Source of the DNA: an uncultured Collinsella sp.
GTDB lineage: Bacteria; Actinomycetota; Coriobacteriia; Coriobacteriales; Coriobacteriaceae
Length of the DNA: 53,546 nucleotides
Direction of reading: 5' to 3'
Assembly (NCBI GenBank): GCA_958438955.1
Contig: CAUBTS010000001.1
Location: forward strand, 1 to 53,546
The translations under genes and the position numbers were made by a program. Below are positions 2,205 to 26,151 of this stretch, piece by piece. Numbering within the stretch: the stretch's first letter is position 1; each line of letters starts with the position of its first letter. Below the pieces are notes generated by a model. It was not told the origin of the DNA. It ran no database searches and worked only from the letters and a program-made list of their open reading frames with translations.

Positions 2205-2207
2205 GGA

Positions 2208-2861: not shown

Positions 2862-2874
2862 GTCGTTCTACCTC

Positions 2875-4332: not shown

Positions 4333-4347
4333 TGTTTCTCCCTTCTC

Positions 4348-5274: not shown

Positions 5275-5286
5275 GCTCTCCCCTCC

Positions 5287-7305: not shown

Positions 7306-7915
7306 TGTTTACGCTCCCTTCTGCTTTCTCGGACAGGCCCTGGGCCACAGCGGTAACGTCGACGACCGGACCGTTTTCGATCGAGCGCAGGCGCTTGGCC
7401 TCGTCGAGCTCGCGATCGGCCGCGCCGCCCATGACGGTCAGCGCCTTGGTGGGGCACGCCGCCACACAATGCGGGCCGTCCGGATCGAAGGCGCACAGAT
7501 CGCACTTGACAGCGCAGGTGTACTGGCCGGGAGCCCACGTAAGAAGGCTGCTCAGGGACTTAGGATACGAAGGCGTCGGATCGCACATGCCTGCGACACC
7601 GGCGATAGACGTGCCATCGGGATGGATGGCTCCGAAGGGGCACGCGATGGCGCACAGCCTGCACCCGATGCACTCCTGCTCCTTGACGTGGATGCGATCG
7701 CCATCGTGCTCGATGGCATTCACCGGGCAAACCTCGGCGCAGGGGGCACCCTCGCAATGGTGGCAGGCAAGGGCGGCCGAAATACCGCCGGTCTTCACGA
7801 GCGCCAGGCGCGGCGTATCCTGAAGACCCTGCATCCGGTGGGCGTCGGCACAGGCGGACTGGCATGTTCCGCAGCCGATGCACCTCTCCGGGTTGATGTC
7901 GATGAAGCGGTTCAT
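7298..7915 (-). CDS. hyfA: 4Fe-4S electron-transfer subunit (HyfA/HycB-like)
   Basis: Four Cys clusters (CIGCGTC, CHHCEGAPC..VCP, CIGCRLCAIACP, KCDLC..CP); ATG 7915 follows GAAAGGAAG. Confidence 0.85.
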   Translation of the reverse strand: MNRFIDINPERCIGCGTCQSACADAHRMQGLQDTPRLALVKTGGISAALACHHCEGAPCAEVCPVNAIEHDGDRIHVKEQECIGCRLCAIACPFGAIHPDGTSIAGVAGMCDPTPSYPKSLSSLLTWAPGQYTCAVKCDLCAFDPDGPHCVAACPTKALTVMGGAADRELDEAKRLRSIENGPVVDVTAVAQGLSEKAEGSVNNG

Positions 7916-7993
7916 CCCCACTTCCTTTCAAAATAACGGGCCGGACCCCCGAACGTACGGGACGCCCGGCCCAAAAAGCCAACGAGAACGGGA

Positions 7994-10216
7994 CTACACG
8001 ATTTGATTCACGTGCGTCTCGTCGTCGAACTTGGCGGTGCCGGGCTCAACGTCCTGGGGAGCGGCGGCATCGACCAGAGCTTGCTTAAGCTCGGTGTACT
8101 GACGCTCGACCTCGCCCTCGGCCCAGACCTGGTCGGCGATAGCGTCGACCTGGCAGGCGGAGAACTTGTCCTCGGGCGTATGCGAGACCGGGTCAACCTT
8201 GTGAATGGTCAGCTCGTTGCACTTGCCGATCCACCACTGGTAGGTCATATAGACCGTGCCCTTGTTGATGCGATCGCTCACGTCGGCGCGGCTGTATACC
8301 TGGCCGCGGCGGCTGTGAATCGAGACGATGTCGCCGTTCTTGATGCCGCGCGCCTCGGCGTCCGCGGGATTCATGCGGACAAAGCCGGGCTCGTCGGCAA
8401 GCAGCGCCAGCGTCTTGCAGTTGCCGGTCATCGAGCGGCAGCTGTAGTGGCCGACCTCGCGGACGGTGCACAGGATGAGCGGGTACTCATCGTCGGGAAG
8501 CTCGGAGGGCGCCTCCCAGTCGTGCGCCATCAGGTTGGCGCGGCCGTCCTTGGTGGTGAACTTGCCACCAGCGAACATGTCGGGCGTACCGTGGTCGTTC
8601 ACATCGGTGCTCTTGACGGGCCACTGGGCGTAGCCGCCCTCGGGAGCCATCTTCTCGTAGGTCGCGCCCACAAAGTTGGGGCACAGGCTAATGCACTCGT
8701 TCCAGATCTGCTCGGTGTTGTCGTAGTGCATGGGGTAACCCATACGCGTGGACAGGTCCGCGAAGATCTCCCAGTCGTGACGGCACTCGCCCTTGGGCGG
8801 AACGGCCGCGTCAAAGTGCTGGAAGCTACGGTCGGATGCGGTAAAGACACCCTCGTGCTCGCCCCAAGAGGTAGCGGGCAGGATGACGTCGGCGAGCATG
8901 GTCGTCTGCGTCATAAAGATGTCCTGGCAAATGAACAGATCCAGCTCGGAGAGCGTCTTGCGCATACCGGCCGAATCGGGCTCGGTCTGCACCGGGTCCT
9001 CGCCGTAGTTGTAGAAGCAGTGCACCTTGCCCTCGTCGACCAGGTGGCCCAGGTCGGTGAGCTTATAGCCCTCCTCGAGCGGGAGCTTTTCCTCGGGCAC
9101 GCCCCAAGCCTTGGCAAACTTGGCACGCACTGCCGGGTCGGTGACCTTTTGGTAGCCAGGGTACAGGTTGGGCAGCATGCCCATATCGCAGGAGCCCTGG
9201 ACGTTATTCTGACCGCGCACGGGCGCGAGGCCAGAATTGGGTTTGCCGATCTGGCCGGCAACGCAGGCGATGGAGGCGATGGTGTGCACCGTCTTCAGGT
9301 TCTGCTTCTGCTGGCATACGCCCATACCCCAGCCAATGATGGCAGAGGGCTTCGCCGTGGCGTACATCTCGGCAGCTTGGTGGATCAACGCGGGCTCGAC
9401 ACCCGTGATGTCCTGTACGGATTCGGGAGTGTAGTTCTTGATGGTCTCCCACCATTCGTCAAAGCCGTTCGTGTGCTCGGCGACGAATTCCTTGTCGTAG
9501 AGGCCATCGTTGACCAAGCAGTTGGCAAAGGCGTTGAGGAACGCAACGTTGCAACCGTTCTTGATCGGAAGGTAGAGATCGGCGATACGCGCGGTTTCGA
9601 TATGGCGCGGGTCGGCGACGATGATCTTGCAACCCTTTTCTTTGGCTCGCACGATACGCCTTGCGACGATGGGGTGCGAATCGGCAGGGTTATAGCCGAA
9701 GAGGAAAATGCAGCCCGCATCCTCCATACCGGGGATGGAGCATGACATGCAACCTGAACCAACCGTGTCCATCAGACCGAGGACAGTAGGGCCGTGTCAA
9801 GTACGGGCGCAGTTGTCCACGCTGTGGGTGCCGATGCACGCACGCGTAAACTTCTGCATGACGTAGTTCGCCTCATTGCCGCCGCCTCGCGAAGAGCCGG
9901 TGGTCATGACAGCGTTAGGACCATATTCGTCAATTATGGCCTGCATCTTAGATGCGGTGAAATCCAGTGCCTCGTCCCAGCTTACGCGCTCAAGATCCGC
10001 GCCCTTGGTGCGGCGGATCATCGGGTGCAGTACGCGGGGAGTCAAGATCTTGGTGTCGTTGATGAAGTCGTAGCCGCTCATGCCCTTAAGGCACAGCTCG
10101 CTCTGGTTGGTGATGCCGTTGAGCGGTTCGGTACCCACGACCTGGCCGTTTTGGACCAAGAGGTTAAACTGGCAACCGGCGCCGCAGTACGGGCAAATCA
10201 CTTTATGCTTCTCCAT
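7994..10216 (-). CDS. fdhF: Selenocysteine-containing formate dehydrogenase H, catalytic subunit (about 740 aa, Sec at codon 140)
   Basis: Track ORFs 9797-10267 and 7994-9772 are one frame joined by TGA at 9797-9799 in VDNCART-U-HGPTV; N-terminal CPYCGAGC...LCLKG; RGQNNVQGSCDMG; ATG 10216 follows AGGAAGGAGG. Confidence 0.95.
9766..9799 (-). promoter_or_regulatory. Bacterial SECIS element of fdhF
   Basis: UGA + 11 nt, then UGUCCUC-GGUCU-GA(U)GGACA hairpin with GGUC in the apical loop, resembling the E. coli fdhF SECIS. Confidence 0.8.
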
Positions 10217-10290
10217 GACACCCTCCTTCCTTTCTCTGCTACCGAATACTCGGTACTTATTTGACAATCATTGGGCCTGTCGCCCGACGC

Positions 10291-10809
10291 TTACGCCTCG
10301 TTTTCGATGGTGGCGCGGGCACGCTCGGCAGTCAGTTCTGCCAGACGCTCCTCGTCTACCAGGGTGAGGCCCTTGGTCGGACACGCCTCGGCACACGCCG
10401 GACCGCCGGGACGGTCCACGCACAGGTCGCACTTGAGCACGAAGCTCTTAGTCTGCGAACCCACGCGAACGTCACCCATCAAGACGGGGACCTGCGTGGT
10501 CGCCACGCTCACGGCGCCAAAGGGGCATGCCATTACGCAGCTCTTGCAGCCGATGCAGTTGTCCTCGTTGACGCCGATGCGATGGTTCTTTGGATCAAAG
10601 AACAAGGCGCCCGTGGGGCAGGCCTTGGCGCACGGAGCGTCCTCGCAGTGGTGACATGCCACCGGCGCGGAAATCTCGTAGGTGCGCGTTACGCGCAAGC
10701 GAGGTGCGGCGATGTTGCCGGGAATATCGTGCGCCTCGATGCACGCCGCCATACAGGTTTGGCACCCAATGCAGCGTGAAGAATCAGCCACGACTCGTTT
10801 ATTGCCCAT
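10291..10809 (-). CDS. 4Fe-4S dicluster electron-transfer protein (HydN/HycB-like)
   Basis: CIGCQTC, CHHCEDAPCAKACP, CIGCKSCVMACP, KCDLC..CP; ATG 10809 after GGAGGGAG. Confidence 0.88.
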   Translation of the reverse strand: MGNKRVVADSSRCIGCQTCMAACIEAHDIPGNIAAPRLRVTRTYEISAPVACHHCEDAPCAKACPTGALFFDPKNHRIGVNEDNCIGCKSCVMACPFGAVSVATTQVPVLMGDVRVGSQTKSFVLKCDLCVDRPGGPACAEACPTKGLTLVDEERLAELTAERARATIENEA

Positions 10810-11238
10810 GTTGTTCACTCCCTCCTGAATCCCATGCCGGAGAGACCCTGTCGACGTTGCCCCGGACCGCCCGTGGTCCGGCATCGGCGTATCGAGTGCA
10901 TGCGGCGAAACAGGCACTTCGATAGAGTTCCTCCAACGATATACAGGCTTAATATACGCAGTTGCAGGTGGCAAACTTGAGCATAGGCCCTGCAATACGG
11001 GTGTATTGCAGGGGTTTTGGCAGGTTGGAATTATTCTCTAGAAGCTATAAAGGTGAGTGTATTACATGCGTACATCCAAGGGAGATTTCACGCTCGTTTA
11101 TAAAGGACGTAATACGTTTGTGATAAATTTCGCGTTCATTAACTTGAGTGCAATAAAGTAGTGGTTATAAGATTAGCTACTAATATTCGATGCTGTATTT
11201 GACCATTCATATTGCACGCTCATTAAGGGGGGCCAGTG

Positions 11239-12141: not shown

Positions 12142-13164
12142 CTATCGGGAGTCGGCGTAGGGTTTTATTGTCGGAATGCCGTAACCGCGCATCATGGCAC
12201 CGAACGATTCTACGTCGTAGGTGTCCGAGAGTTTGAAATGAATGACGTTGTGGCCCATGGCGCGAAGGTTCGCGTCGCGCATGAGGGCCGCTCGATACGT
12301 TTTTGCCGCCGCCCGCTCTGGATCATTTTGAGCCTCGTCTTCAAACTTGCCTAGCCCATGCAGCTCTGCCAGCGTCCATGAGCCGTCTGGCATCTGCCAG
12401 CCATAATCTGCTAGATAATAGCCAGCGTTTCCCGGTCGCGTTATCTCAACTTGAAGCTCGGGCGCGGCAACCCCAGCGAGAATCATCGCTGCTCTCGCCT
12501 CAGACTCGCCGCCATTGTCTGACCTGCCGTCCATACACTCAAAAACGTCAAAAGCACGCGCGTTGCCATGCAGCCCTCGACAATTTGCCTGCGCATATGC
12601 TCGCAGCTCTTCGCGTTCGACATCGTACTCACGGGCCAAGCCATCGACATAACCCAGCGCATAGCGAAAGGCGCTCGATCGCGCGATATCAACAACCGTT
12701 CGACACGGATCCGTCAGTGTAAACAGACCAAGCCGCCACACTTCGCCCGGGCGCCAGCGCTTGTATTCAACGAACTCATACGTATCACGCCTTGTAGACC
12801 GTGGCAGCAGCACTTGCACTTTATCCAGAAGCGTATACGCCGAGCCGATGCCGTAGAGCAGCGCTGCTGTCGCTCCGCAAAACACAGCATCCGGTTCAAC
12901 GACCGCAATAGCGGATGCCAGCTGAAAGATACGATCTTCAACCCCAAGATTATTCCAATAGACCGGATCCGCATATACATGGTTGTAAAGACGAAGCATG
13001 AGCTCTTCCTGCATAAGCTCGCGCGCACGGCGTTCATCCCAAGGATCAATTGTTATAAGCAGCTGTCCATCTTGATGAATTCCAACGGCCGAGAATAACA
13101 TCCTTGCATAGGACTGCGGAAAATGTTTGCCTTTATCGAGCATGGCCAACCCCATAACCATCAC
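12142..13164 (-). CDS. Actinobacterial AbiEi-like / DUF559-like (PD-(D/E)XK-type) putative DNA-binding nuclease
   Basis: VFCGATAALLYGI, LTDPCRTVVDIAR, SDNGGESEAR, PELQVEI, LADYGW, AELHGLGKF; family call by motif recognition only; start uncertain. Confidence 0.6.
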   Translation of the reverse strand: MMVMGLAMLDKGKHFPQSYARMLFSAVGIHQDGQLLITIDPWDERRARELMQEELMLRLYNHVYADPVYWNNLGVEDRIFQLASAIAVVEPDAVFCGATAALLYGIGSAYTLLDKVQVLLPRSTRRDTYEFVEYKRWRPGEVWRLGLFTLTDPCRTVVDIARSSAFRYALGYVDGLAREYDVEREELRAYAQANCRGLHGNARAFDVFECMDGRSDNGGESEARAAMILAGVAAPELQVEITRPGNAGYYLADYGWQMPDGSWTLAELHGLGKFEDEAQNDPERAAAKTYRAALMRDANLRAMGHNVIHFKLSDTYDVESFGAMMRGYGIPTIKPYADSR

Positions 13165-13475: not shown

Positions 13476-13549
13476 TGGAGCGGGCGACGGGAATCGAACC
13501 CGCGTCATCAGCTTGGAAGGCTGGGGTTCTACCATTGAACTACGCCCGC
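13476..13549 (-). tRNA. tRNA-Gly (TCC)
   Basis: GCGGGCGTAGTTCAATGGTAGAACCCCAGCCTTCCAAGCTG...GGTTCGATTCCCGTCGCCCGCTCCA. Confidence 0.97.
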
Positions 13550-13555
13550 AAGATA

Positions 13556-13632
13556 TGGTCGGGACGACAGGATTTGAACCTGCGACATCCTGCTCCCAAA
13601 GCAGGCGCGCTACCAAACTGCGCCACGTCCCG
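13556..13632 (-). tRNA. tRNA-Pro (TGG)
   Basis: CGGGACGTGGCGCAGTTTGGTAGCGCGCCTGCTTTGGGAGCAGG...GGTTCAAATCCTGTCGTCCCGACCA. Confidence 0.97.
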
Positions 13633-13723
13633 AAGGTGTTGAGCAGCTAAGGTCTAAACCTTGCGTGTCCCAAAGCGAAGGAAATTATAGGGGAGACTCC
13701 CCGCCTGTGCAAGCATTGATGCC

Positions 13724-15082
13724 TTAGCTCCTCGAATGTGCGACAAAACGACTATGGAGCAGACCGATCACAAAGGCAACCACGGCAACCGGCGCCCACG
13801 CGGCACCGATGTCTGCCAGGGGTAGCGCATCAAACGGCAGCCACGCGCCCGCAACGAACGCATCGCGGACCGAGGTGATCACGCTCTGCACGGCGACCAC
13901 GCCGCCGACCCAGACCCACACCTGCGGATGAGCGTCGCAAAAGCCGTGCACCAGGCCCATCAGTACCAGCACGATGGCGACGGGATACAGGGCGTTGAGC
14001 ATGGGCACCGAGAACATAAGGATCACGTCGAGGCCCACGTTGGAGAGCACGCACGAAAACGCTGCGAACACAAAGGCGAGAACCGCAAAGGGACGGCGCA
14101 TGGCCTCCTCGGAGGCCTCCACTCCCCCTTCAACCACGTACGTCTCGCAGAAGTAACGCGAGCAGCAGCTAATAAGACCGATGCACACGTTCATGCAGGC
14201 AAGGAAAAAGATCGCAAAGACCACGACCGTGCCGGCAAGGCCAAAGTGCATGGAGGCCGAACGGGCGAGGATGGCGGCGCCGTTGGTAGCGTCGGGCATC
14301 ACGGTGCCGAGCTGCGTGCCGGCAAGCGCCAGGCCGCAGTAGATGATGGCCATGAGTACGCCGGCAATCACACCGGAGCGCGAAATCTCAAAGGCCACGC
14401 GCTTGTCATCGGTAACACCCAACTCGTGGATGGTCTCGGCGATGATGATGCCGAAGGCGAGCGACGCGAGCAGGTCCATGGTCTGATAGCCAGTCAGAAA
14501 GCCCTGCACGGCGGCGCCTGCATCGTAAGGAGCCAGAGGCGCGGCAGCCGGTCCCAGCGGCGAGATCACGGCAGCACCCACGACCAGCACAATGAGCGCA
14601 ATGAGCGCGGGGCCCGTAATGCGGCCGAGCACGCGTGTGATGACACCCGGGCGCAGCGTGAGCGCAAACGCGACGACAAAGAAGCCAACGGCAAACACCA
14701 GGCGAGCCGTACCGAGCGAGACGCCCTCGGGCAGCAGCGGCACCAGCATCTCGAAGGCCGTGGAGCTCGTGCGCGGAATAGCCAGGCACGGGCCGATGGC
14801 CAGATACACCGCCGCGACAAAGAACTCACCGAACTTGGGGTGCACGCGGCCGGCAAGCTCACGCGCCGTTCCGGCGAGCGCCACGGCGATAAAGCCCATA
14901 ACAGGCAGGCCGATGGCAGCAATCAAAAAGCCAATCATGGCAAGTGGCGTGGCGGTACCGGCCTGAAGTGCCAGCAACGGCGGAATGATGAGGTTACCGG
15001 CGCCAAAGAGCATCGAGAACAGCGCAATGCCGACGGTAACGACATGGTCGGAGCGCAGGCCGCGCGGGGCGGATGAGGCCAT
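13724..15082 (-). CDS. brnQ: Branched-chain amino acid transport system II carrier
   Basis: LFSMLFGAGNLIIPP, IGPCLAIPRT, GYQTMDLLASLAFG. Confidence 0.9.
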   Translation of the reverse strand: MASSAPRGLRSDHVVTVGIALFSMLFGAGNLIIPPLLALQAGTATPLAMIGFLIAAIGLPVMGFIAVALAGTARELAGRVHPKFGEFFVAAVYLAIGPCLAIPRTSSTAFEMLVPLLPEGVSLGTARLVFAVGFFVVAFALTLRPGVITRVLGRITGPALIALIVLVVGAAVISPLGPAAAPLAPYDAGAAVQGFLTGYQTMDLLASLAFGIIIAETIHELGVTDDKRVAFEISRSGVIAGVLMAIIYCGLALAGTQLGTVMPDATNGAAILARSASMHFGLAGTVVVFAIFFLACMNVCIGLISCCSRYFCETYVVEGGVEASEEAMRRPFAVLAFVFAAFSCVLSNVGLDVILMFSVPMLNALYPVAIVLVLMGLVHGFCDAHPQVWVWVGGVVAVQSVITSVRDAFVAGAWLPFDALPLADIGAAWAPVAVVAFVIGLLHSRFVAHSRS

Positions 15083-15102
15083 GGGCACACCTTTCGGGTC
15101 GA

Positions 15103-15136
15103 AACAAAAACGGGACGGGCAAAAACACCCGTCCCG
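15103..15136 (-). terminator. Intrinsic terminator of the selenium operon
   Basis: CGGGACGGG...CCCGTCCCG followed by TTTTTGTTT on the minus strand. Confidence 0.75.
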
Positions 15137-15150
15137 CAAGTATATACGCT

Positions 15151-16290
15151 CTAGCAGGCTAAATCGCGCAAAGCGTCAATCGCGGTGTCGACTTCCTCGG
15201 CCGTATTGAAATAGCCAAACGAGAATCGGACGACACCCTGGCGCTCGGTTCCCAGCGCGCGGTGCATGAGCGGAGCGCAATGGGCGCCGGGGCGCGTCGC
15301 AATCCCCCACCCTTGCATGAGCGCGTCCGAGATCTCGGCCGAATCGATATCGCCCACGTTGAGTGAGACGATCGCCGAGCGCACGGGCTGATCAAACGCA
15401 CCGTAGAGCGCAATGCCGGGGATTTCGCGCACACCGGCAAGGAAGCGATCAGCGAGCGCACGCTCGTGGGCAGCAATCGCCTCGACCCCACCCTGGGCGT
15501 CGATAAAGTCGAGGCCGGCAGAAAGTCCCGCGATGCCGTGACCGTTGAGCGTGCCCGCCTCAAGGCGCGTGGGCCACTCAAGCGGCTGCAGTGCATCGAA
15601 GCTGTGCACACCCGTGCCGCCCATGGCCCACGGAGCCACGTCAATGCCCTCCGCCACGGCCAGCCCGCCGGTCCCTTGCGGACCCATGAGCCCCTTGTGG
15701 CCGGTAAAGCACACGACGTCGAGCCCCATGGCCTGCATATCGATATGCGCCGTGCCGGCAGACTGAGAGGCATCGACGATCAACAGCGCGCCGGCCGCAT
15801 GCGCGATGGCCACCACGCGCGCAATGTCGACCGCGTTACCGGTCACATTGGAGGCGTGCGTCACCACCACGGCGCGCGTACCGGACGTGACCAGCCGCTC
15901 GAGCTCGTCGTAGTCGAGCACGCCGCTCGCATCGCAACCCGCATGCTCAACCGTCACACCCTGCTCCGTCGCCAAGCGATTGAGCGGACGCAGCACGGAA
16001 TTGTGCTCAAGCACCGTCGTGACCACGCGGTCGCCGGGGCGCACCACCCCGTTGATGGCGGTGTTGAGCGCCGCCGTGGAGTTGGGCGTAAAACACACAT
16101 GGTCCGCCCTCGGGCAACCAAAAAGGCGCGCAAGCTTGGCGCGGCAAGCGTGAATCGTACGAGCGGCATCGAGGGCACCCGACGTGGCACCGCGCCCGGC
16201 ATTGCCGAGCGAGCACATCGCCTGCGTCACCGCATCGATGACCGTCTGCGGCTTGTGCATGGTCGTCGCCGCGTTATCCAGGTAGATCAT
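15151..16290 (-). CDS. Class V PLP enzyme, cysteine desulfurase / selenocysteine lyase-like
   Basis: MIYLDNAATT, EHNSV, FTGHKGLMGPQG, RPGAHCAP. Confidence 0.9.
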   Translation of the reverse strand: MIYLDNAATTMHKPQTVIDAVTQAMCSLGNAGRGATSGALDAARTIHACRAKLARLFGCPRADHVCFTPNSTAALNTAINGVVRPGDRVVTTVLEHNSVLRPLNRLATEQGVTVEHAGCDASGVLDYDELERLVTSGTRAVVVTHASNVTGNAVDIARVVAIAHAAGALLIVDASQSAGTAHIDMQAMGLDVVCFTGHKGLMGPQGTGGLAVAEGIDVAPWAMGGTGVHSFDALQPLEWPTRLEAGTLNGHGIAGLSAGLDFIDAQGGVEAIAAHERALADRFLAGVREIPGIALYGAFDQPVRSAIVSLNVGDIDSAEISDALMQGWGIATRPGAHCAPLMHRALGTERQGVVRFSFGYFNTAEEVDTAIDALRDLAC

Positions 16291-16538
16291 CGCACGACCT
16301 CCCACATATCGATCACGGTAAAGCCCTCGGTGGGAACGCCTGCCGCGGCAAGCTCGCCGCGTAGCAGTTCCTCATCTGCAGGCAGGGCTTTCCACGCCAG
16401 ACCGCAGCCAGCGGCGACCTCCCCGGGCACGGGAATCGTTCGCCCGGGAAGGCCGCGCTCGATGCACAGGGACTCGCAGCCCATGGCGGCCGCCGTGGTG
16501 GGAAACGTGATGACAAGCGCCGGGCGCTTCTCCCTCAT
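16287..16538 (-). CDS. DUF3343-family small protein (putative Se/S carrier)
   Basis: VITFPTTAAAM...IPVPGEVAAGCGLAW; ATGA overlap with the next gene. Confidence 0.8.
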   Translation of the reverse strand: MREKRPALVITFPTTAAAMGCESLCIERGLPGRTIPVPGEVAAGCGLAWKALPADEELLRGELAAAGVPTEGFTVIDMWEVVR

Positions 16539-16557
16539 GGCAACTCCAACCAATACG

Positions 16558-17184
16558 CTACGGGCGCACGACGCGCACGGCCTGCTCCATCTTCTCCACG
16601 ATCACGTACATGTTGGTGACCTCGCCCACCGCAAGCTGGTCTTTAATGCCATAGTGGTCCAGGCAGGTGCCGCAGGTAAGGATCTCGACGCCCTGCTCGG
16701 CCAGACCCTTCAGGTCGTCGAGCACCGGTGAGCCCTCGACGGTGAGCTTGGCGCCGCCGTTATAGAACAGCATGGTCGAGGGCAGCTCCTCCTGCTGTGT
16801 CACGGCAAAGATGAAGGCCTTCATGAGCTTGTGGCCCAGCTCGTCGTCGCCGCGGCCCATGCAGTCGGTGTAGACGGAGATGACGAGCTTGCCCTTGCCG
16901 GCGCTGGCATCACAGAAGGCAGCGCCATCCTGCTCGGGATCGGCCACGGCAACGGCGCCAGAGGTCGCCACGGTCACGTGCCACTCGGCGTCAGAAACCT
17001 TCTCGACCGAGGCCGTGCAGCCCTTCTCCTGCGCCATCTTGGAGATGTTCTTGACGGCGGTCTCGTTATCGACCGAGGTCACGACGGTGCCCTCGCCATC
17101 GAGCTGCTTCAGAGCTTTGAGCGTCTTGACGACGGGCAGCGGGCAGGCATCGCCCATGGCATTGACTTCAATCTTGGTAGACAT
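16558..17184 (-). CDS. yedF: Selenium-metabolism protein YedF type (TusA/SirA domain + DsrE-like domain)
   Basis: GDACPLPVVKT, VDNETAVKN, FYNGG, ILTCGTCLDHY. Confidence 0.85.
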   Translation of the reverse strand: MSTKIEVNAMGDACPLPVVKTLKALKQLDGEGTVVTSVDNETAVKNISKMAQEKGCTASVEKVSDAEWHVTVATSGAVAVADPEQDGAAFCDASAGKGKLVISVYTDCMGRGDDELGHKLMKAFIFAVTQQEELPSTMLFYNGGAKLTVEGSPVLDDLKGLAEQGVEILTCGTCLDHYGIKDQLAVGEVTNMYVIVEKMEQAVRVVRP

Positions 17185-17241
17185 ATTTTTTCCTTTCGAA
17201 TAAATCGTTTTAGAACTGTACATAGCTCAATAAACGTGTCG

Positions 17242-18291
17242 TTAACGGACAACGTGGACGGCAGGACCGTCCGGCACCGGCTCGCACACGCGGCCGATTG
17301 TGGCGGCAACACGCCCCTCGGCATGCAGACGGCACGCAAGCTCATCCACATCGGCAGCAGGCGCCGCGATAAGCAGGCCACCAGACGTCTGTGGATCGTA
17401 CAGCGCGTCGAGCATACCTGGCTCCAGGTCCTCGTCGGCAGCCACGCGCGGGCCAAAGAAGTCCTGGTTGCGATAGGAGCCCGCGGGGATAATGCCCAGA
17501 CGCGCCATGTCGAGCACCTGATCAAAGAGTGGCACCGCTCCCGAGGCAAGCTCAACCTGCACGCCCGAGCCCTCGGCCATCTCGCACGCATGCCCGATCA
17601 GACCAAAGCCCGTAATGTCGGTGCAGCCGTGAAGCTCAAGTCCCTCGGCCAGACGAATCGGCGCCTCGTTGAGGGTGCACATCGAGTCAAACATGACTGC
17701 GGCCTCGTCTTGCTCGATGAGCTCGCCCTTAATGGCCGTGGTGATGATGCCCGAGCCGATCGCCTTGGTCAGCAGCAGAACATCGCCCACGCGTGCGCCG
17801 CTGTTGGCGAGCATGCGGTCGAGCGCGACAAAACCACTCACGGACAGGCCGTACTTGGGCTCGTCATCGTTGATGGTATGGCCGCCCGCGATGGAGCAAC
17901 CCGCCTCGACGCACTTGTCGGCGCCGCCCGCCAGAATCTGGCCGGCGACCTCGATGCCCAGGCAGCTCGGGATGCACAGCAAGTTCATGGCATGGCTCGG
18001 CCGCCCGCCCATGGCGTAGATGTCCGACAGCGAGTTGGCCGCGGCGATCTGGCCAAACAGGAACGGGTCGTCGACCATCGGCGGGAAGAAGTCGATGGAC
18101 TGCACGAGACCAAGGTTCTCCCCTACGCGGAAGACGCTCGCATCGTCGGAGGTATCGAACCCCACGAGCAAGTTGTCGTTATGCACATTGGGTAAATCGC
18201 CCAGGACCTGGGCGAGGGCTCCGGGGGCCAACTTAGCGGCTCAACCGCTCGCGGCCGTCATGGACGTGAGCCTCATGGTGTCCTTAGCCAT
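17242..18291 (-). CDS. selD: Selenide, water dikinase with selenocysteine at codon 17
   Basis: MAKDTMRLTSMTAASG-TGA(18241-18243)-AAKLAPG is in frame with track ORF 17242-18231; DDASV, DFFPPMVDDP, GGHT, TDITGFGL, DPQTSGGLL; hairpin UCGCCCAG-GUC-CUGGGCGA at 18197-18215. Confidence 0.93.
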
Positions 18292-19501
18292 ACGAACCCC
18301 CTTCCAACAAATTAACGACTTTAAGTATACGCCCCAGGCACGCTTCCCAAGAGACCGCCGACGGCTCGAACGTCGAAGGCGGAGCCGCAAGCGCCTGCGC
18401 GATAGCATCTGCCAGTGCGCGCTCAAACAACGGAAGGTCGGCCGCCACGGGCGTGTCGACATCCGTCATACGCGGCGACGCCACCCACGTCACGGGAGCA
18501 CCGGGAAGCATCGCCTCCATCCAGGGACGAACGCCGGGCAAATCGGTCGCCACAACTTTGCAGCCGCACGCGAGGGCCTCGATCGTCACGAGCGGCAAAC
18601 CTTCGTAAAACGAAGGCAGCACAAAGACGTCGGAACTGCGGTAGGCACGCACGAGTTCATCGCTATCCAAGCGCCCCGCCAGCGTCACCGGCACATCCGA
18701 GGCCGCGGTCAAGCGCTCGATACGCGCGTACTCGGCATCGTCCCCGCGGCCGCCCACAAGTACCAAGCCAGATGAGCGGACGCCATCGTCAATCGGCAAT
18801 GACACAGCTCGAACCAGCGACTCGACGCCCTTTTTAAAGCAAATCTTGCCCACGTACACAAGCGATCCCGGCTGCCTCGCCACGCTTGCGTCGCGGCAGA
18901 AGACGCGATGGTCGTAGCCCGTCCCAATCACGTGGATGCGATCGGCATCGACGCCGCACACCAGGCCAATCTGCTCAGCCTGCTCAGCGTGGAGCGCAAA
19001 GACGGCATCGAGCCGACGAACCGCACTTACGATGCGATCGCGCTCGAGCGCATGCGAACGCAGCTGGCGCAGGTCGGTCGAATGGCACACGGCAACAACC
19101 GGCACGCCCCGGACGCACTCGCGCGCCAATGCGGTCACAAGATACAGGTGATGGCAGAGCACCAGATCGGGCCGAAACTCAGCCACCGCCCGATCGATTG
19201 CAGCAGCAAATGCCCGCTCAAATGCCTTGAGCATCGAAGGCGTCAGGTCACGATAGCGCGTGGAGGGATAGGGCATGACATCGGACATACCGCAGATGGG
19301 AAACGGCAGCTCGGGCGACTCGAACGGTACGGCAAACACGGCAGCACGCCGGTCCAGCTCGCCTTGGGTATCACCCGGTGCCGCGCCGCAAAGCACGGCG
19401 GCGCGATGCCCCGTCTCGATCTGTTCGCGTACGAGCGCGGCAAGGTAGGTGCCGCTGCCGGTGCTATCTGGTTTTTGCGCCGAGATATTGAGGATGCGCA
19501 T
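18284..19501 (-). CDS. Glycosyltransferase family 4 (GT-B) protein
   Basis: MRILNISAQKPDSTGSG, YVGKICFKKG, FVLPSFYEGLPLVTIEALACG (EX7E motif); stop overlaps the selD start. Confidence 0.88.
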   Translation of the reverse strand: MRILNISAQKPDSTGSGTYLAALVREQIETGHRAAVLCGAAPGDTQGELDRRAAVFAVPFESPELPFPICGMSDVMPYPSTRYRDLTPSMLKAFERAFAAAIDRAVAEFRPDLVLCHHLYLVTALARECVRGVPVVAVCHSTDLRQLRSHALERDRIVSAVRRLDAVFALHAEQAEQIGLVCGVDADRIHVIGTGYDHRVFCRDASVARQPGSLVYVGKICFKKGVESLVRAVSLPIDDGVRSSGLVLVGGRGDDAEYARIERLTAASDVPVTLAGRLDSDELVRAYRSSDVFVLPSFYEGLPLVTIEALACGCKVVATDLPGVRPWMEAMLPGAPVTWVASPRMTDVDTPVAADLPLFERALADAIAQALAAPPSTFEPSAVSWEACLGRILKVVNLLEGGSYG

Positions 19502-19515
19502 GTCGCGGTACACCC

Positions 19516-20280
19516 CTAGGCCAAGGCGGCGGCGCGGACAGCCGCGCCGATCGCTCCGGCAAAGCGAGCTTGGGGCGAGGTGGTCACCGGCGACCCCAGT
19601 AGCTCGCCCAACCGCTCCACCACGAAGGCGTTCTCGCACAGGCCACCGGTCAGGTAGTACGGGGCGCCCGCGGCCTGCCCGGCCATGGTCGCCACGCGCG
19701 ATACGACACTCTCAATCACACCACGGGCGATGTTCTCGCGCGGCTCACCACGGCCGATCAGGCTGATGACCTCGCTTTCGGCAAACACCGTGCACATGCT
19801 GCTGATCTTGGTGGGTTCGCCGGTGCGGGCGAGGTCCGTCATCTGCTGTTGGGAAATGCCTAGGCGGTCGGCCATGATCTCCAAAAAGCGCCCCGTGCCG
19901 GCGGCGCACTTGTCGTTCATGGCAAACTTGGCCACGCGGCCACTTTTAAGCTGAATGACCTTGGTGTCCTGGCCGCCTACGTCAATCACCGTGCCGTGAT
20001 CGCCAAACAGGCGCACGGCACCGGTGCCGTGGCAGGTAATCTCGGTCACAACCTTGTGCGCATAGGGCACGGCGACACGGCCGTAGCCAGTCGCGATCAC
20101 GCGCACGTCGTCGGCAGCCACGTCGTAGCCAGCCGCTGCCAGTGCCTCGCGCAGCCGCTCGGAAGCATCGACCGAGGAGAACCCGGTTGGCTGCACGCAC
20201 GTCCACGCCACCGAACCCTCCCCGTCGACCACAGCAGCCTTAGCCGCCGTAGACCCGATATCGATCCCGATCCCTATCAT
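19516..20280 (-). CDS. ATP-dependent [4Fe-4S] activase/reductase (HgdC/YjiL/DCCP-R type)
   Basis: GIDIGSTAAK, ATGYGR, EITCH, IDVGGQDTK, MNDKCAAGTGRFLE, SSMCTVFAESE. Confidence 0.92.
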   Translation of the reverse strand: MIGIGIDIGSTAAKAAVVDGEGSVAWTCVQPTGFSSVDASERLREALAAAGYDVAADDVRVIATGYGRVAVPYAHKVVTEITCHGTGAVRLFGDHGTVIDVGGQDTKVIQLKSGRVAKFAMNDKCAAGTGRFLEIMADRLGISQQQMTDLARTGEPTKISSMCTVFAESEVISLIGRGEPRENIARGVIESVVSRVATMAGQAAGAPYYLTGGLCENAFVVERLGELLGSPVTTSPQARFAGAIGAAVRAAALA

Positions 20281-20333
20281 GGCTCTCTCCCAATCTAAAC
20301 ATCAAAGACAGTGGCACGTTCAGGCACCTTAGC

Positions 20334-20440
20334 TCTAGGTTTCTCAGGTGCCGGAGATTGCCCCGAAAGAGGAGCGCAGCGTACTTTGGGTACGCAAGCG
20401 ACGGTTTGAGGAGCAAGATCCGGTGCCTGAGGAAGCTAGA
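20334..20440. repeat. About 105-bp structured intergenic repeat, copy A
   Basis: Long imperfect hairpin with core GAGCGCAGCGTACTTTGGGTACGCAAGCGACGGTTTGA; homologous to 21637-21738. Confidence 0.85.
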
Positions 20441-21599
20441 GGGTTTCGATGAAGGCGGCGATGCGGGTCTCGATCTGGCCCATGTCGCCGTTGCTGTAGT
20501 CGGTCTCGATCTTCATGTACGGAATACCCGCGCCCTCGACAGCCTCCTGCATGCGCGCACTCTCCACGTTAAAGGTGTGGCAGGCCTGTAGCACGCTCTC
20601 TACCACGCCATCGACATGATACTTCTCGCACATGGCCAGCGTATTTTCCATACGACCGTCGTTGGGCGTCATGACCGAGCAGTTGATATCCAGGTAGCGA
20701 TCGGCGATGGCGCGCAGAATGTCGGGCGCGTCCGGGTCGATCATCATGGCCGCCGTGCGCTCACCCGAGCAGTCGTCCATGCACACGACCACGCCGCCGT
20801 TGGACTCGATGGTGCGACCGATCTTGTTGATCACGCCGCCCACCGGGCAACCGGTGATCAGAATGCGCTTGGCATCCGCCGCAACCGGGCGCCCGCCCGC
20901 GTCGTAGGCCTCGCGCAGCTTGACGACCTTTTGCTCCAGTTGCTGCGTATAGGCCTCGATATCAAAGCTGAACGTGCCGGCAAACATGGTGCTCATCAGG
21001 TCGATGCCGCTCATGGCCGCCGGCTGGTTGGCCTGCAACGCAAACATCTCGAGCTGGGCCGCACGCAAGCGGTTGCGACGGCGCACGGCGGCGCGCAGGT
21101 CGTCGTCGGTAATCGTGATGCCGTAAAAGCTCTCGAGCTCCTCCTTGAGCAGGCGGCACTCCTCGTACCAGCCTTCACGCTCGTAGGCGCGATCGCGGCC
21201 CTGCGGAAGATGCAGAATGTGCGTGCGCTTGAGCTCGTTGAGCAGCTCGTACATCTTCTTCTTGCCGTCGCAGGTGGTCTCACCGATGATCATGTCGCTA
21301 AAGTACGTAAACGGGCACTTTTGCGAATAGGCAAAACCGTAGGTCGACTTGATGAGCGGACACAGATTTGCCGGCAGCACCTTCTCGGCCTCGGGAATCA
21401 CCTCATCGGACGTACCGCACAGAGCCACACTTGCAGCGCCCGCGGCATCGATAATCTCGAGCGGCGTATAACTGCACAAAAAGCCGACCAGGCGATTACC
21501 CGCCTGCTTATAATCCTTGACGCGAATAAACGCCGCCTTGCGCTGCTCGTTGAACTCCTCAAACGTGGACGGCAACGGCTGCTCAATATATTCCGACAT
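20436..21599 (-). CDS. Double-cubane-cluster reductase / 2-hydroxyacyl-CoA dehydratase family (YjiM-like)
   Basis: [62 protein letters not shown] 21599 after AAGGAG. Confidence 0.88.
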
Positions 21600-21636
21600 A
21601 TAACTCCTTAACAAACCTTTTAACCAACCAAGGAAA

Positions 21637-21738
21637 CGGCTTTCCCAGGTGCCCGAGGTTGCCGTGAAAAAGGAGCGCCGCGTACTTTGGTACGCAAGCG
21701 ACGGTTTGAACGGCAAGATCGGGTGCCTGGGGAAGCCG
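21637..21738. repeat. About 105-bp structured intergenic repeat, copy B
   Basis: CGGCTTTCCCAGG...GAGCGCCGCGTACTTTGGTACGCAAGCGAC...CCTGGGGAAGCCG, with compensatory changes relative to copy A. Confidence 0.85.
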
Positions 21739-21753
21739 CCGGGACGAATAGTC

Positions 21754-23037
21754 CTAAATGGTTTCCAAGAAAGCCTCAATCCTGGTTTGCAGCTGGCCTG
21801 CGTCCTCGCCGGCGTAGTCGGTGGTGATATGCATAAACGGAATGCCCGCCTCCTCGGCGGCCTTCTCCACGGCAAACGACTCCATCTCGTAGAGCGTGCA
21901 GAACTGCAGGGCCACGTCGACGATGCCGTCGGCATGCAGGTCCTTGGCCATCTGGACAATGTCCTTCATACGCTGGTCGTTGGGCGTAAAGACAGCACAG
22001 TTGATCTTAAAGTAGCGCTCGGCGATGGCATCAAGCATCTCGTCGACCGTCTCGCCGGACTCGTCGACCAGGTCCTTGTAGTAGCGCGAGCCCGTGCAGG
22101 ACTCCTCGCCCACCACGACGCCGCCGGCCTTCTCGATGAGGTTGAAAAGCTTCCAGTTGGGCACAGCCATGGGCGTACCGGTGTACAGGATGCGCTTGGT
22201 CCCCTTGGGTGCCACGCCCTCGCCGGCCTCGACACGTTGCTCGCACTCAGCCGCCATATCATTAATGGCGCCGGTCAGACGCGGCGTGTCGTCCATAAAG
22301 GCGGCCTGAACGGTCAGCAGGCTGTCCAGACCGCTGATGGGCGCTGGGTCGGCAGTGCGCGTGGCAGCGAGGCGCTGCAGGGCGCGACGCTTCTCATTGA
22401 CGGCGTGGATGGCGGCCTTCAGACGCTCAGGCGTAATCGTGACGCCGCACTCTTCCTCGATCTTGGCGGCGAGCTTCTTGACTTCGGCCTTCCAGGTCAC
22501 GAGCGTCGACTCGTCGTGCACGTTGGGAATATCCATGACGTACATGTTCTTTTGCGTGGCAAAGAACTCGTAGGCTTTCTTCTTACCGTCGCAGGTGTTC
22601 TCGCCTACCACCAGGTCACTCGACTCAATGTAGGGGCAGACCTCGCCCAGCTTAAAGCCGGCAAAGCTCTTGATAAGCGGGCAGGTGTTGCGCGGCAGGT
22701 GCTCCTCGACCTTATCGGTTGCCCAATCGGCACCCGAGCACAGGCCAACGGGAATGCCGTCACAGGCAAGCACGATCTCCTCGGACACGTACACGCAGAA
22801 CGAGCCGACGATCTTGGTGGCCTCGCCGGCCTCCTTCTTGTCGAGCATCTCCTTAATGCGGCCGCTATGAATGTTGGTGGCCACAAAGTCCAGGTAGGAC
22901 GTGGACTTGGGACGGTTGTTCTGCGACAGGAACATGTCCCCGTACATCTGGCCCACGGCGCCCAGCAGCATATCGTGGTCGGCAAGATTCATGCCGAGGC
23001 TCTCCCACATCGGATGGAAATCGAATTCTTCAGCCAT
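21754..23037 (-). CDS. Double-cubane-cluster reductase (DCCP-like), second paralog
   Basis: [56 protein letters not shown]. Confidence 0.88.
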
Positions 23038-23154
23038 GACGGTTCCCCTCTCGAACCAAAAACGGATTACAGCGGTATCGATGCACGACGGACGGCGATT
23101 GCCCGGCCGTGCTCAAACCCGGAATTTTAGGGAACCTGCTTTGCGGTCGATTAT

Positions 23155-23265
23155 TTAGTTGTGCGTCGTCTCTCCCGGAGCCGTGAACATACCTGCTCAT
23201 ATGCGACTCCGAACCATATAGAGGGCGCGCGCGGCAACGCGACGCGAATATGTCTTCTGCGGCAT
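23155..23265 (-). CDS. Putative leader peptide with an in-frame UGA (22 aa, or 36 aa if Sec is inserted)
   Basis: AAAGGAGGG SD, then MPQKTYSRRVAARALYMVRSRI-TGA(23197-23199)-AGMFTAPGETTHN-TAA. Confidence 0.5.
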
Positions 23266-23478
23266 CGGCGCGCCCTCCTTTTCTCGTCGAAGATAACTAT
23301 ATCAACGGTCGTCGTCCAAACGAACACCGCCGACACGCGTACGACAGCGACAGACACCGTCGTTTAATAATTAATTATCTTGTTTGATAAGGTTTTGTCA
23401 TCAATCATTCGGCGAACGGTAGGCCTAAAAGCGATACGGCGGCCGAAGACTGTATCCCCGACCGCATCGCACACCAAA

Positions 23479-24549
23479 CTACCGACAAACCAGGTGAATC
23501 CTGCTCGCATCGAAATGCATGCGCAAGGTCTCCCCCGCTTGCGGCAGCTCCTCCACAGGCACACTCACCTTGTTGACCTTCCACTGCAGGCGCGTCGGCG
23601 CATCGGCACGCGGCACATCCAGTAGCACCAAGCGCTCAAAACGCGAATCGCTCACGCGGGCCACGTGCAGATCGTAGCTGTTGCGACCACGCTCGGCACG
23701 ATTGTCCACATGGAAGTAGCTCGCGCGAATGCCTAGGTGCGCCACGTTATCGGGCACCTCGCGACCAACATTGAAGGTCATGCCCCAGTCCAGGGCTTCA
23801 ACTTCCCGAGGCCCCGTTTTGCGCGCGCGGCTCGTGTTCTTGCAGCCCGTCAGGCGCAGCGCGGCCAGGGTTTGCGGCCGGCGAACCACGTCCTCCACAG
23901 AGCCAATCTCCTCAACATGCCCGTTATGCATCACGCAGATGCGCTCGCACAGACGGCATGCCTCATCAATATCGTGGCTCACGTAGAGTACGGTACGATT
24001 GCAGACGTCGAACAGGTCGAGCATGTTTTGCTCAAGCGCGCTCTTCAGATACGCGTCGAGCGCACTCATGGGCTCATCGAACATAAAGATGCCCGGGTGC
24101 GCCGCTACCATGCGGGCGAGCGCCACGCGCTGCTGCTGTCCGCCTGAGAGGCGTGCGGGATAGCGATCGGCAAAGTCGGCCAGGCCAAAAATGCCCAGGT
24201 AGCGCTCAGCAAGCTTTTTGCGTGCCGCGGCGTCGCCCGCATCTTCAACGCCGGCGCACACATTATCGGCAACCGTCATATTGGGGAACAGCTGATAGTT
24301 TTGGAACAGCAAGGCGCACTTGCGCTCCTGGGGCGACAGGTTAATACCCGCGGCCGAATCAAAGAAAGTCACGCCGTTGACGACGATCTTGCCCTCGTCG
24401 GGCGTCTCAACGCCGGCGATGCAGCGCAAGGTACAGCTCTTGCCGCATCCGGAGGCACCGAGCAGCGCCACGCACTCCTCGCCGGCCTCAAGCTGAATGT
24501 CGAGCGTAAAGCCGGGATAGCGCTTTTTGATATCCAGAACGAGCGACAT
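23479..24549 (-). CDS. modC: Molybdate ABC transporter ATPase
   Basis: GASGCGKS, LSGGQQQRVALAR, DEPMSALD; downstream of modAB. Confidence 0.88.
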   Translation of the reverse strand: MSLVLDIKKRYPGFTLDIQLEAGEECVALLGASGCGKSCTLRCIAGVETPDEGKIVVNGVTFFDSAAGINLSPQERKCALLFQNYQLFPNMTVADNVCAGVEDAGDAAARKKLAERYLGIFGLADFADRYPARLSGGQQQRVALARMVAAHPGIFMFDEPMSALDAYLKSALEQNMLDLFDVCNRTVLYVSHDIDEACRLCERICVMHNGHVEEIGSVEDVVRRPQTLAALRLTGCKNTSRARKTGPREVEALDWGMTFNVGREVPDNVAHLGIRASYFHVDNRAERGRNSYDLHVARVSDSRFERLVLLDVPRADAPTRLQWKVNKVSVPVEELPQAGETLRMHFDASRIHLVCR

Positions 24550-24552
24550 GGC

Positions 24553-26034
24553 TTATCGACCTCCCTTCGCAACCGCGTCGTCGCGCATAAGCTCGGCCAA
24601 CGCCTCGCGGTCGATGCGCAGGGCATCGCCACCAACGGGGTCGAGCGAATCGCCCTGGCCGGCGAGCTCCTTGGTCTGCTTGCGCTCCGCACGCGAAAGG
24701 CCCCGCTCACGGTACTTTTGCGAGTGCGCCGTATACATGTTGATGAACAGGATGACCAGGAAGCTAAAGACGATTACGACGACGACCCAAAAGAGCGCCA
24801 CCGACGTATTGCCGCCCATCCATTCAAAGTAGATGGAGATGGGAATGGTCTGCGTAATGCCGGCATAGTTGCCCGCAAAGAACAGCGTGCAGCCAAACTC
24901 GCCCATAGCGCGGGCAAAGGCGAGCACCGTGCCGGCGGCGATAGACGGCCAGCCGAGGGGCATCATGAGTTTGGCAAAGATGCGACGCTCAGACCAGCCC
25001 AGCGTGCGCGCGGCGTCGAGCATCTGCGTGTCGAGGCTCTCGAAGGCGCCGAGTGCCGTACGATAGACGAGCGGGAACGACACCACCACGGCAGAGATCA
25101 CCGCCGCCGGCCACGTAAAGACAATCGAGATGCCGTGTGCGATCAGCCACTGCCCCACCCCGGTCGAGCGACCGAACAGCATAAGCAGCAAAAAGCCGCA
25201 GACCGTGGGCGGCAGCACCATGGGAATGGTAAAGACTGAATCGAGCAGGCCCTTCACGCGGCTCGTGGTGCCCATGGTCTTCCACGCGGCAAACAAGCCC
25301 AGCGCAAACGCGATCACCAGGGCAAGACTGCTTGTTTTGATAGACACCCAAAACGGACGGTAGTCGATGCCGCCAAAAAACGTCTGGGCGCGTTCTGCCA
25401 GCGAAGGCGGCTCCGTCGTCGAGACGCTCGCATACGGCACCAGGGCGGCGTTATCGCTCCACAGAGCGCCGTCACCCAGGTTAAGCTCAGTGTTTGCGGC
25501 GTCCGCGGCGTTCACGACGGTGTAGTATTCGCCGTCGCCGCCCTTTACCTTAAACTGATAGCGGTAATCGCCCTGTACCAGCGTATTGTCCGAGGTGAAC
25601 ACCCAATCGAGCTTGGAATCCTCCAGCAGCGCGCCTCCCATGGAGTGGGACTTATCGAGCCCCGCGAGCATCTTCTTGAGCGCCTTTTGATCGGAGAAGC
25701 TCGCAATGTTAAGGCCCGCCTCCTTGGCGGCGTGTGCATCGACCCATACCACGATGTTCGTAGGCGTGGTCACCGTTACGAGCGTCGTCTTTTTGTAGAT
25801 GGGAAAACGATAGCCCTCGGGCTGGTCGGCAAACGAGCGGGCCGTTCCTTTTGCGTTGCGCTCAAAAGCGTTGAGGCCAAAATCAACGCCATCGAGAAGT
25901 GCGGAGTCCTCGGTCGCCTGACGCCCATCGGCGGTGGCAAAAAGTGCCTCGGCTCGAGCAACCCCGGGCAGCACCGTCAGCGCGCAGACAACAGCCGCCA
26001 ACGCGGCGAGCAGGCGAATCGTTTTCCTTGACAC
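24553..26034 (-). CDS. modB: Molybdate ABC permease with a long N-terminal extracytoplasmic extension
   Basis: C-terminal half has PMVLPPTVCG, LDAARTLG, FARAMGEFG; N-terminal signal peptide plus soluble domain; GTG 26034 after GAGGAG. Confidence 0.85.
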   Translation of the reverse strand: MSRKTIRLLAALAAVVCALTVLPGVARAEALFATADGRQATEDSALLDGVDFGLNAFERNAKGTARSFADQPEGYRFPIYKKTTLVTVTTPTNIVVWVDAHAAKEAGLNIASFSDQKALKKMLAGLDKSHSMGGALLEDSKLDWVFTSDNTLVQGDYRYQFKVKGGDGEYYTVVNAADAANTELNLGDGALWSDNAALVPYASVSTTEPPSLAERAQTFFGGIDYRPFWVSIKTSSLALVIAFALGLFAAWKTMGTTSRVKGLLDSVFTIPMVLPPTVCGFLLLMLFGRSTGVGQWLIAHGISIVFTWPAAVISAVVVSFPLVYRTALGAFESLDTQMLDAARTLGWSERRIFAKLMMPLGWPSIAAGTVLAFARAMGEFGCTLFFAGNYAGITQTIPISIYFEWMGGNTSVALFWVVVVIVFSFLVILFINMYTAHSQKYRERGLSRAERKQTKELAGQGDSLDPVGGDALRIDREALAELMRDDAVAKGGR

Positions 26035-26151
26035 GGGCGACTCCTCAAACACAGGGCAACGGCGCGCGGACACGCCGCTTCAATCTAAAAAGGGCGGACG
26101 ATCGCAAGAACGCCCGCCCTCAAGCATATCGTTATGTAGCTCAGCTATGCA

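Follow-up and report, generated by a model that had tools for sequence, protein, structure and literature searches.

Two double-cubane cluster proteins, their activase and an accessory glycosyltransferase in a selenium-delivery operon of Collinsella

The closest described relatives of the proteins considered here are the double-cubane cluster protein (DCCP) of Carboxydothermus hydrogenoformans and its ATP-dependent reductase DCCP-R (PDB 6ENO, 7YYL). In the solved DCCP the channels are too narrow for coenzyme A (CoA) esters and small molecules are reduced, and an N-terminal extension narrows the substrate channel in proteins of this family (PMC7317905). An association of DCCPs with selenium is already in print: it appears in a table of Lin et al. 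2015 (PMC5322559), the only place in that paper where the terms dehydratase and activase occur, and Haft 2022 reports the co-occurrence of DCCP with the selenophosphate synthetase SelD, proposing both selenium-substrate and selenium-cofactor ideas for double-cubane enzymes. We searched the literature for a physiological substrate of any DCCP and found none assigned. Here we describe an operon in which two DCCP genes, an activase gene and a glycosyltransferase gene precede selD, yedF, a DUF3343 gene and a gene for a class V pyridoxal-phosphate enzyme. It lies on the first 53,546 nucleotides (hereafter the window) of contig CAUBTS010000001.1, from an assembly of an uncultured Collinsella sp. (GCA_958438955.1; class Coriobacteriia, order Coriobacteriales).

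The linkage of DCCPs to selenium genes is recurrent, far above what chance would give for single-copy genes, and it is not general to the family. We describe the locus as a housekeeping module for selenium delivery, made up of the class V enzyme, DUF3343, YedF and SelD, into which a redox module of two DCCPs and one activase appears to be plugged. The reading towards which we lean, tentatively, is that the redox module would, at the expense of ATP, carry out low-potential reductions as an accessory to selenium delivery, providing the carriers and SelD with selenium in reduced form.

The gene block and its double-cubane proteins

Translations of open reading frames (ORFs) together with profile searches identify eight co-directional minus-strand genes spanning positions 15151-23037 (Table 1). 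The first-pass annotation, a reading of the letters and ORFs alone, had proposed this block, and each of its genes is now identified by profile; the correction needed is that the eight-gene form represents one variant, as the glycosyltransferase gene is absent from 47 of the 72 Collinsella-type loci that hold both activase and selD. Cut-offs for the models listed in Table 1 are 350 bits for NF040772, 125 for TIGR00241, 125 for TIGR00476, 110 for TIGR03527 and 377 for TIGR01977. Spacing is tight from the activase onward, with 14 nt between activase and glycosyltransferase, an 8-nt overlap of the glycosyltransferase stop with the selD start, 18 nt between selD and yedF, 4 nt between yedF and the DUF3343 gene, and overlapping DUF3343 and class V genes; the two intervals before the activase measure 169 nt (DCCP-A to DCCP-B) and 155 nt (DCCP-B to activase). 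The terminator that closes the block has a 12-bp stem located at 15110-15137 and is rated strong.

By sequence, both window proteins are genuine DCCPs. They are paralogs with 36% identity, and each passes the NF040772 cut-off. Residues 7-427 of DCCP-A align with residues 4-421 of 6ENO from end to end (E 1.4e-124), and residues 24-381 of DCCP-B align with residues 63-420 (E 1.9e-78), the first ~60 residues being missing. All seven cysteines of the double-cubane pattern are present, beginning at C81 in DCCP-A and C37 in DCCP-B; the spacings (18, 18, 29, 164, 32, 32 and 18, 18, 29, 166, 29, 32, respectively) are near, and not identical to, the pattern CX19CX18-19CX29CX166-170CX32-34CX32C printed for the family (Haft 2022). 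Alignments of 15 and 21 sequences show no variation at these cysteines. In the full-length homology of DCCP-A, the seven cysteines and the adjoining activase of the ASKHA type, the locus resembles the C. hydrogenoformans system. It differs in encoding two diverged paralogs, one with and one without the N-terminal extension, and in being embedded in a selenium-delivery operon.

Pfam puts both proteins in PF06050 (HGD-D) and an activase is encoded too, which would also suit a standard 2-hydroxyacyl-CoA dehydratase, or a benzoyl-CoA-reductase-type enzyme, with the two proteins as its subunits; the HadBC and HgdAB dehydratases with their activators share the superfamily fold and the ATP-driven injection of electrons. 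DCCP-B lacks the N-terminal extension, and a CoA ester is more conceivable as substrate for such YjiM-like forms (PMC7317905). The equivalog models nevertheless score far under their cut-offs (HadC, 102 and 90 bits against 700; BzdN, 86 and 75 against 454), both proteins carry the seven-cysteine pattern, and no Pfam match to a CoA-transferase or an acyl-CoA dehydrogenase was found among the 57 ORFs of at least 140 aa across the window. Membership in either enzyme family was rejected on the low scores and on the CoA partner genes not found. The absence of those partner genes from the neighbourhood had been noted in the first-pass annotation, whose doubt about acyl-CoA dehydration is further borne out by the end-to-end alignment of DCCP-A with a small-molecule reductase; we regard an ordinary acyl-CoA dehydratase as very unlikely.

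The last four genes belong to the same four families, in the same tight arrangement, as the previously described locus of selD, yedF, DUF3343 and a gene of the selenocysteine-lyase family (PMC5322559; SclA family). The in-frame TGA of selD (18241-18243) falls inside the motif G-U-A-A-K, which upholds the earlier call of a selenocysteine (Sec)-containing SelD, and most selD matches of the class Coriobacteriia likewise contain one in-frame TGA. A hairpin 3' of this TGA has a folding energy no better than that of shuffled sequence, and we make no claim of a selenocysteine insertion sequence (SECIS) element. The YedF motifs CPxPV and CGTC do not vary among 16 sequences; the true start of the gene is probably the ATG at 17184. 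The class V enzyme, placed by TIGR01977 among cysteine desulfurase or selenocysteine-lyase-like proteins, was also considered as SclA and rejected, since unlike members of that family it falls under the equivalog cut-off (NF040779, 355 bits against 525).

Expression of the block was followed with stranded RNA-seq reads of a relative (mostly 90-95% alike, a strain without the glycosyltransferase gene) mapped on positions 13600-24700. Read depth is 50-160 in every bin from 23245 to 15084, except over the missing glycosyltransferase gene. In the leader it stands at 50-97 from 23245 downward, against ~1-2 over the 3' part of modC (23617-23987), and it is 12-18 further into the mod genes. This pattern fits one transcription unit with its own promoter upstream of DCCP-A. 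In the relative, expression is continuous over DCCP and selenium genes, and the separate transcription named at the first pass as a refuting finding was not seen. The transcription start is not placed exactly because positions 23241-23357 are diverged in the RNA-seq strain. A sigma-70-like site at 23401-23374, in the region between modC and DCCP-A, matches no better than shuffled sequence does. An upstream ORF of 21 codons (23264-23199, minus strand) has a strong Shine-Dalgarno sequence and ends in TGA, and the ~45 nt that follow it are identical in three close Collinsella loci and unalignable in L179 and L174. The operon leader has a folding energy no better than shuffled sequence, a scan for promoter and terminator patterns returned nothing above the shuffled expectation except the final terminator, and Rfam gave no riboswitch or known RNA in or before the operon, its matches in the window being RNase P and two tRNAs.

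Linkage to selenium genes within and beyond the order

We searched 251 Coriobacteriia genomes for DCCP and selD. DCCP was found in 129 and selD in 207; both were present in 126, DCCP only in 3, selD only in 81 and neither in 41. Hence selD occurs in 126/129 genomes with DCCP and in 81/122 without, and the three DCCP-only genomes are all 82-86% complete. Haft 2022 gives DCCP with SelD in 955/970.

Relatives of the window proteins were then located by tblastn in 20-kb stretches around DCCP genes. At ten non-Collinsella loci of the same order, from eight genera, a TIGR01977-like gene lies within a few kb in every case, accompanied by DUF3343 at eight, yedF at seven, selD at five (in the fetched stretch) and the glycosyltransferase gene at two, with gene order and strand shuffled among the loci. 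Two loci of one further genus (L178, L179) carry the full set. The genes that stay closest to DCCP are thus those for the class V enzyme, YedF and DUF3343, rather than selD. Conversely, of 11 selD-centred stretches from genomes without a DCCP match, ten have selD beside a class V gene, in most cases along with yedF and DUF3343. Two Collinsella genomes have the series class V-DUF3343-yedF-selD followed directly by modC, so that the two DCCPs, the activase and the glycosyltransferase are absent as a block. The dependence is one-way: in the order of the window the module often occurs without DCCP, and DCCP never without the module.

Such one-way dependence equally fits a client relationship, in which the class V enzyme, DUF3343, YedF and perhaps SelD would furnish the double-cubane cluster with selenium (or with its ninth sulfur), and the DCCPs would act on an unrelated substrate. 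The most constant DCCP neighbour is indeed the desulfurase-type enzyme and not selD (10/10 against 5/10), DCCP almost always occurs in genomes with SelD, and a selenium-bridged cofactor is listed as a formal possibility by Haft 2022. The solved DCCP, however, was produced in E. coli and is active with an [8Fe-9S] cluster that has a bridging sulfide (PMC7317905). Client DCCPs should moreover have neighbours from their own pathways, and there is no other constant partner in the order of the window; nor is any selenium-module gene nearby in 30 of the 39 metagenome lineages described below. We therefore judge this reversed flow rather unlikely.

One genus (g17) was considered for telling the two directions apart. 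Its selD stands alone ~40 kb away from a cluster of DCCP-B, activase, yedF, DUF3343 and class V genes, which abuts yqeB, the maturation gene of selenium-dependent molybdenum hydroxylases (G228 contig 7, 71247-76261, L146; G040 contig 91), and no selA match was found in the genus. The idea that DCCP is the only client of SelD there was dropped when yqeB was found, and the two directions are not separable in this genus.

A quick maximum-likelihood tree of 61 DCCPs, with support from the SH-like approximate likelihood-ratio test (SH-aLRT), resolves four clades. All rows of clade B (13) and clade A1 (6) are embedded in the selenium module. Clade A2 comprises the window DCCP-A and two others and is sister to a 34-row clade linked to selenocysteine-assisted organometallic (SAO) loci; the fourth, a small one, is made up of second DCCPs from SAO loci. 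Embedding in the selenium module is thus found in three separate clades (B, A1, A2). The same seven-gene block recurs in a genome of another family with 84-88% protein identity, which suggests that the block may have been transferred and may move as a unit.

A profile search of genome contigs with the DCCP alignment returned almost only Collinsella and was used for variation within the genus. An insert of more than 1 kb separates DCCP-A and DCCP-B in 8 of 65 loci; in the Collinsella locus L036 (7803-13077) a five-gene nik/opp-type ATP-binding-cassette importer lies between them. Another Collinsella clade (L173-L177, e.g. L176 5251-7696) has a single DCCP and activase followed by a major facilitator superfamily (MFS) gene, and a formate/nitrite-family channel gene directly before yedF-class V-DUF3343-selD; both features were seen in 4/4 annotated loci of that clade.

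In other orders of Coriobacteriia, the closest relatives of DCCP-A (55-61% identity) adjoin SaoA and SaoX. In one annotated locus SaoA scores 375 bits against a cut-off of 360 and SaoX 425 against 300; this locus and a second one both carry an FtrB-like gene, and the second has YedF, an arrangement known from Haft 2022. At L122 (462-10837) and L120 the SAO cassette genes and an FtrB-like gene lie between two DCCP genes, and some ORFs in these loci are probably broken by Sec codons. The SAO loci (Haft 2022) thus tie the same DCCP family to selenium biology. The window differs in that its DCCP partner is the selD/YedF/DUF3343/class V module and that SaoX has no match in its genome (92.7% complete); assignment of the window as an SAO system, for which SaoX, SaoA and SaoL would be expected, was rejected on the SaoX and SaoL searches, the SaoL part being weak because the SaoL search, negative in the window genome, matched no control genome either.

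One metagenome scan, for which a distant DCCP headed the alignment, yielded 80 loci (G+C 27-61%, many with short flanks), which cluster into 39 lineages at 70% identity. A class V, yedF or selD relative lies in the available flanks of eight lineages, and in a ninth DUF3343 was detected by Pfam only, in a Pfam search that covered 56 ORFs of 10 loci. The remaining lineages have heterogeneous neighbourhoods: molybdopterin oxidoreductases, genes for corrinoid methyltransferases, a radical-SAM/methyltransferase fusion and sugar genes are among what they contain. It is on this ground, with linked lineages in the minority and the rest diverse, that we call the linkage recurrent and not general. Profiling in Coriobacteriia and in metagenomes together answers in the affirmative the question, raised at the first pass, of whether these DCCP clades are tied to selenium genes elsewhere.

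Glycosyltransferase, locus features and surroundings

A known precedent for a glycosyltransferase gene at this position is the selenosugar step of selenoneine biosynthesis: SenB was found through a glycosyltransferase gene overlapping a selD-type gene (Kayrouz et al. 2022). The window shares with the SenB/SenC step this overlap of a gene for a GT-B fold glycosyltransferase with a selD-type gene, and it differs in that the operon has no EgtB-like gene. The window enzyme (GT4) is not a SenB. The SenB model TIGR04348 scores 22 bits against 300 (E 6e-5), covering part of the C-terminal domain only, the 50 best fold matches of the GT4 model do not include SenB, and no SenB chain appeared in a PDB sequence search with GT4. 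An AlphaFold2 model of GT4 is confident (mean predicted local distance difference test, pLDDT, 92.7), and among solved structures its fold is nearest to those of sucrose-phosphate synthase, GlgM, MshA and BshA, which are retaining members of GT4 with small phosphorylated or anionic acceptors. GT4 enzymes are retaining, and the product of SenB is inverted.

GT4 is accessory, and it tracks selD. It is present in 25 of the 72 Collinsella-type loci holding both activase and selD, and its orthologs occur in 29 of the 251 Coriobacteriia genomes, in only three families (f1, f3 and f6) of the window's order. It adjoins selD in seven genera, including two loci without DCCP, and lies 30-46 kb from selD in three; among the genera with GT4 one lacks selD, and its GT4 is either truncated or interrupted by a stop. 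Where present, GT4 is probably translationally coupled to selD and probably uses or modifies a small anionic acceptor linked to SelD. If it acts on selenophosphate, it would represent a second, independent route to selenium-sugar chemistry. A wider conjecture would join it to the reductases in a selenium salvage loop: GT4, as a second selenium-glycosyltransferase family unrelated to SenB, would make a selenosugar from selenophosphate in a strict anaerobe, and the two DCCPs would cleave Se-C or Se-Se bonds, or would reduce selenium in its elemental form, returning selenide to YedF, DUF3343 and SelD. We consider this loop a long shot. In several public gene calls (P0003, P0004, P0008-P0010) activase and GT4 are fused into a single protein of 602-669 aa; these may be gene-calling artefacts, because the long GT4 ORF of the window extends back into the activase gene.

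Table 1. Coordinates of the features of the operon, in the order of transcription
Feature	Position	Strand	Evidence or remark
Leader/promoter region	23038..23478	-	modC to DCCP-A interval
DCCP-A, 427 aa, N-terminal extension present	21754..23037	-	NF040772 486 bits
Short dispersed repeat, DCCP-A/DCCP-B spacer	21637..21739		Multi-contig matches, raised read depth
DCCP-B, 382 aa counted from MSEYIE, without N-terminal extension	20436..21584	-	NF040772 494 bits
ASKHA-type ATP-dependent electron-transfer activase (HgdC/DCCP-R type)	19516..20280	-	TIGR00241 235 bits; PF01869 193 bits
GT4-family GT-B fold glycosyltransferase, accessory	18284..19501	-	Pfam GT4/GT1 domains only
selD, selenophosphate synthetase, Sec at TGA 18241-18243	17242..18291	-	TIGR00476 362 bits
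yedF, TusA-like then DsrE-like domain	16558..17223	-	TIGR03527 215 bits
DUF3343, putative Se/S carrier	16287..16553	-	PF11823 66 bits
Class V pyridoxal-phosphate enzyme, cysteine desulfurase/selenocysteine-lyase-like	15151..16305	-	TIGR01977 417 bits
Intrinsic terminator closing the block	15103..15137	-	12-pair stem, 8 G-C pairs, T run

Pieces of at least four other contigs of related strains map to the repeat in the DCCP-A/DCCP-B spacer, where reads have several different flanks and depth is ~2.5x that of neighbouring bins. Upstream of the block lie modABC and mog/moeA. The ModB-type permease (24553-26073, minus strand, 506 aa) has its transporter domain only in residues 256-448; its N-terminal ~230 residues have a signal-like start and matched no Pfam family. 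Downstream follow brnQ, two tRNAs, a stop-interrupted formate dehydrogenase and hyc/hyf-type hydrogenase subunits. The molybdopterin formate-dehydrogenase-type gene (7997-10267, minus strand) is split between ~9773 and 9799 by an in-frame stop that is probably a Sec codon, and 4Fe-4S proteins and hyc/hyf-type membrane subunits are encoded beside it at 648-7921 and 10294-10995. This formate dehydrogenase cluster, 5 kb from the selenium operon, is likely a client of it. Between positions 10000 and 14000 the G+C content is 0.55-0.57, against ~0.62 in the rest of the window; a 340-aa ORF (12142-13164) without a Pfam match and the two tRNA genes (13479-13632) lie there.

The window genome (92.7% complete) contains selA and yqeB, and at that completeness selU and YedE, like SaoX, gave no match. 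At least two ordinary clients of SelD are thus present in this organism, and the housekeeping module would serve both selenocysteine and the selenium-molybdenum cofactor.

These surroundings bring up a further explanation, that the DCCP substrate contains no selenium (a sulfur species or another small molecule) and that co-location reflects shared regulation or a trace-element island. The block does sit between modABC with mog/moeA and a cluster of hydrogenase genes with a formate dehydrogenase that probably contains Sec, some strains add a nickel/peptide-type importer, and DCCP contexts outside the order are heterogeneous. YedF, DUF3343 and class V enzymes could carry sulfur equally well, and the SAO substrate-binding protein resembles sulfonate-binding proteins. 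Yet the linkage survives shuffled gene orders in at least eight genera, three DCCP clades and an apparent transfer of the whole block; the g17 cluster stays with yedF, DUF3343, class V and yqeB, away from the molybdate genes looked for; and selenium-module genes, each roughly single-copy per genome, stand beside nine of 39 unrelated metagenome DCCP lineages. On balance, co-location of this kind around a selenium-free substrate seems to us improbable.

Possible role of the reductases in selenium traffic

Under the favoured reading of an accessory reductase on the selenium-trafficking module, the activase would take an electron from ferredoxin or flavodoxin and, spending ATP, would inject it into DCCP-A, DCCP-B or both, at the [8Fe-9S] cluster. 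Once reduced, the cluster could act on selenium species that are hard for thiols to reduce, such as elemental or poly-selenium, carrier-bound perselenide or imported organoselenium, and a selenide-level product would pass via YedF and DUF3343 to SelD. In the first-pass annotation the reductases were suggested to release selenide for SelD from selenium compounds, either oxidised or organic. What the analysis establishes is family membership, gene order, a conserved linkage and co-expression; the selenium-containing nature of the substrate, the direction of flow and the hand-off between proteins are what we infer. The recurrence of transporters in DCCP clusters (nik/opp-type and MFS, and the SAO importer in other orders) counts in favour of this role, as does the position of the g17 cluster next to yqeB in a genus without a selA match.

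Several observations weigh against it. The 34 DCCP loci of other Coriobacteriia orders have the activase and lack class V and DUF3343 genes, and only nine of the 39 metagenome lineages have a selenium-module gene nearby. Within the order of the window selD is not always adjacent to DCCP, as the ~40 kb separating them in g17 illustrates, and the compared genomes are related, so that the counts are not independent. The RNA-seq reads come from a related strain without GT4, and coverage alone is no proof of a single transcript. Finally, thiols reduce selenite without a special enzyme, and the need for a low-potential reductase is therefore plausible only for other selenium species.

Double-cubane proteins are enzymes described as a new class, and the locus offers a practical test of their role. 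It occurs in Collinsella, a common genus of the human gut that includes C. aerofaciens strains, and in natural variants that differ in the number of DCCPs (two, one or none) and in the presence of GT4 and of an inserted importer. Because such Collinsella variants with and without DCCP and GT4 exist, the proposal that double-cubane reductases may act in selenium metabolism is directly testable.

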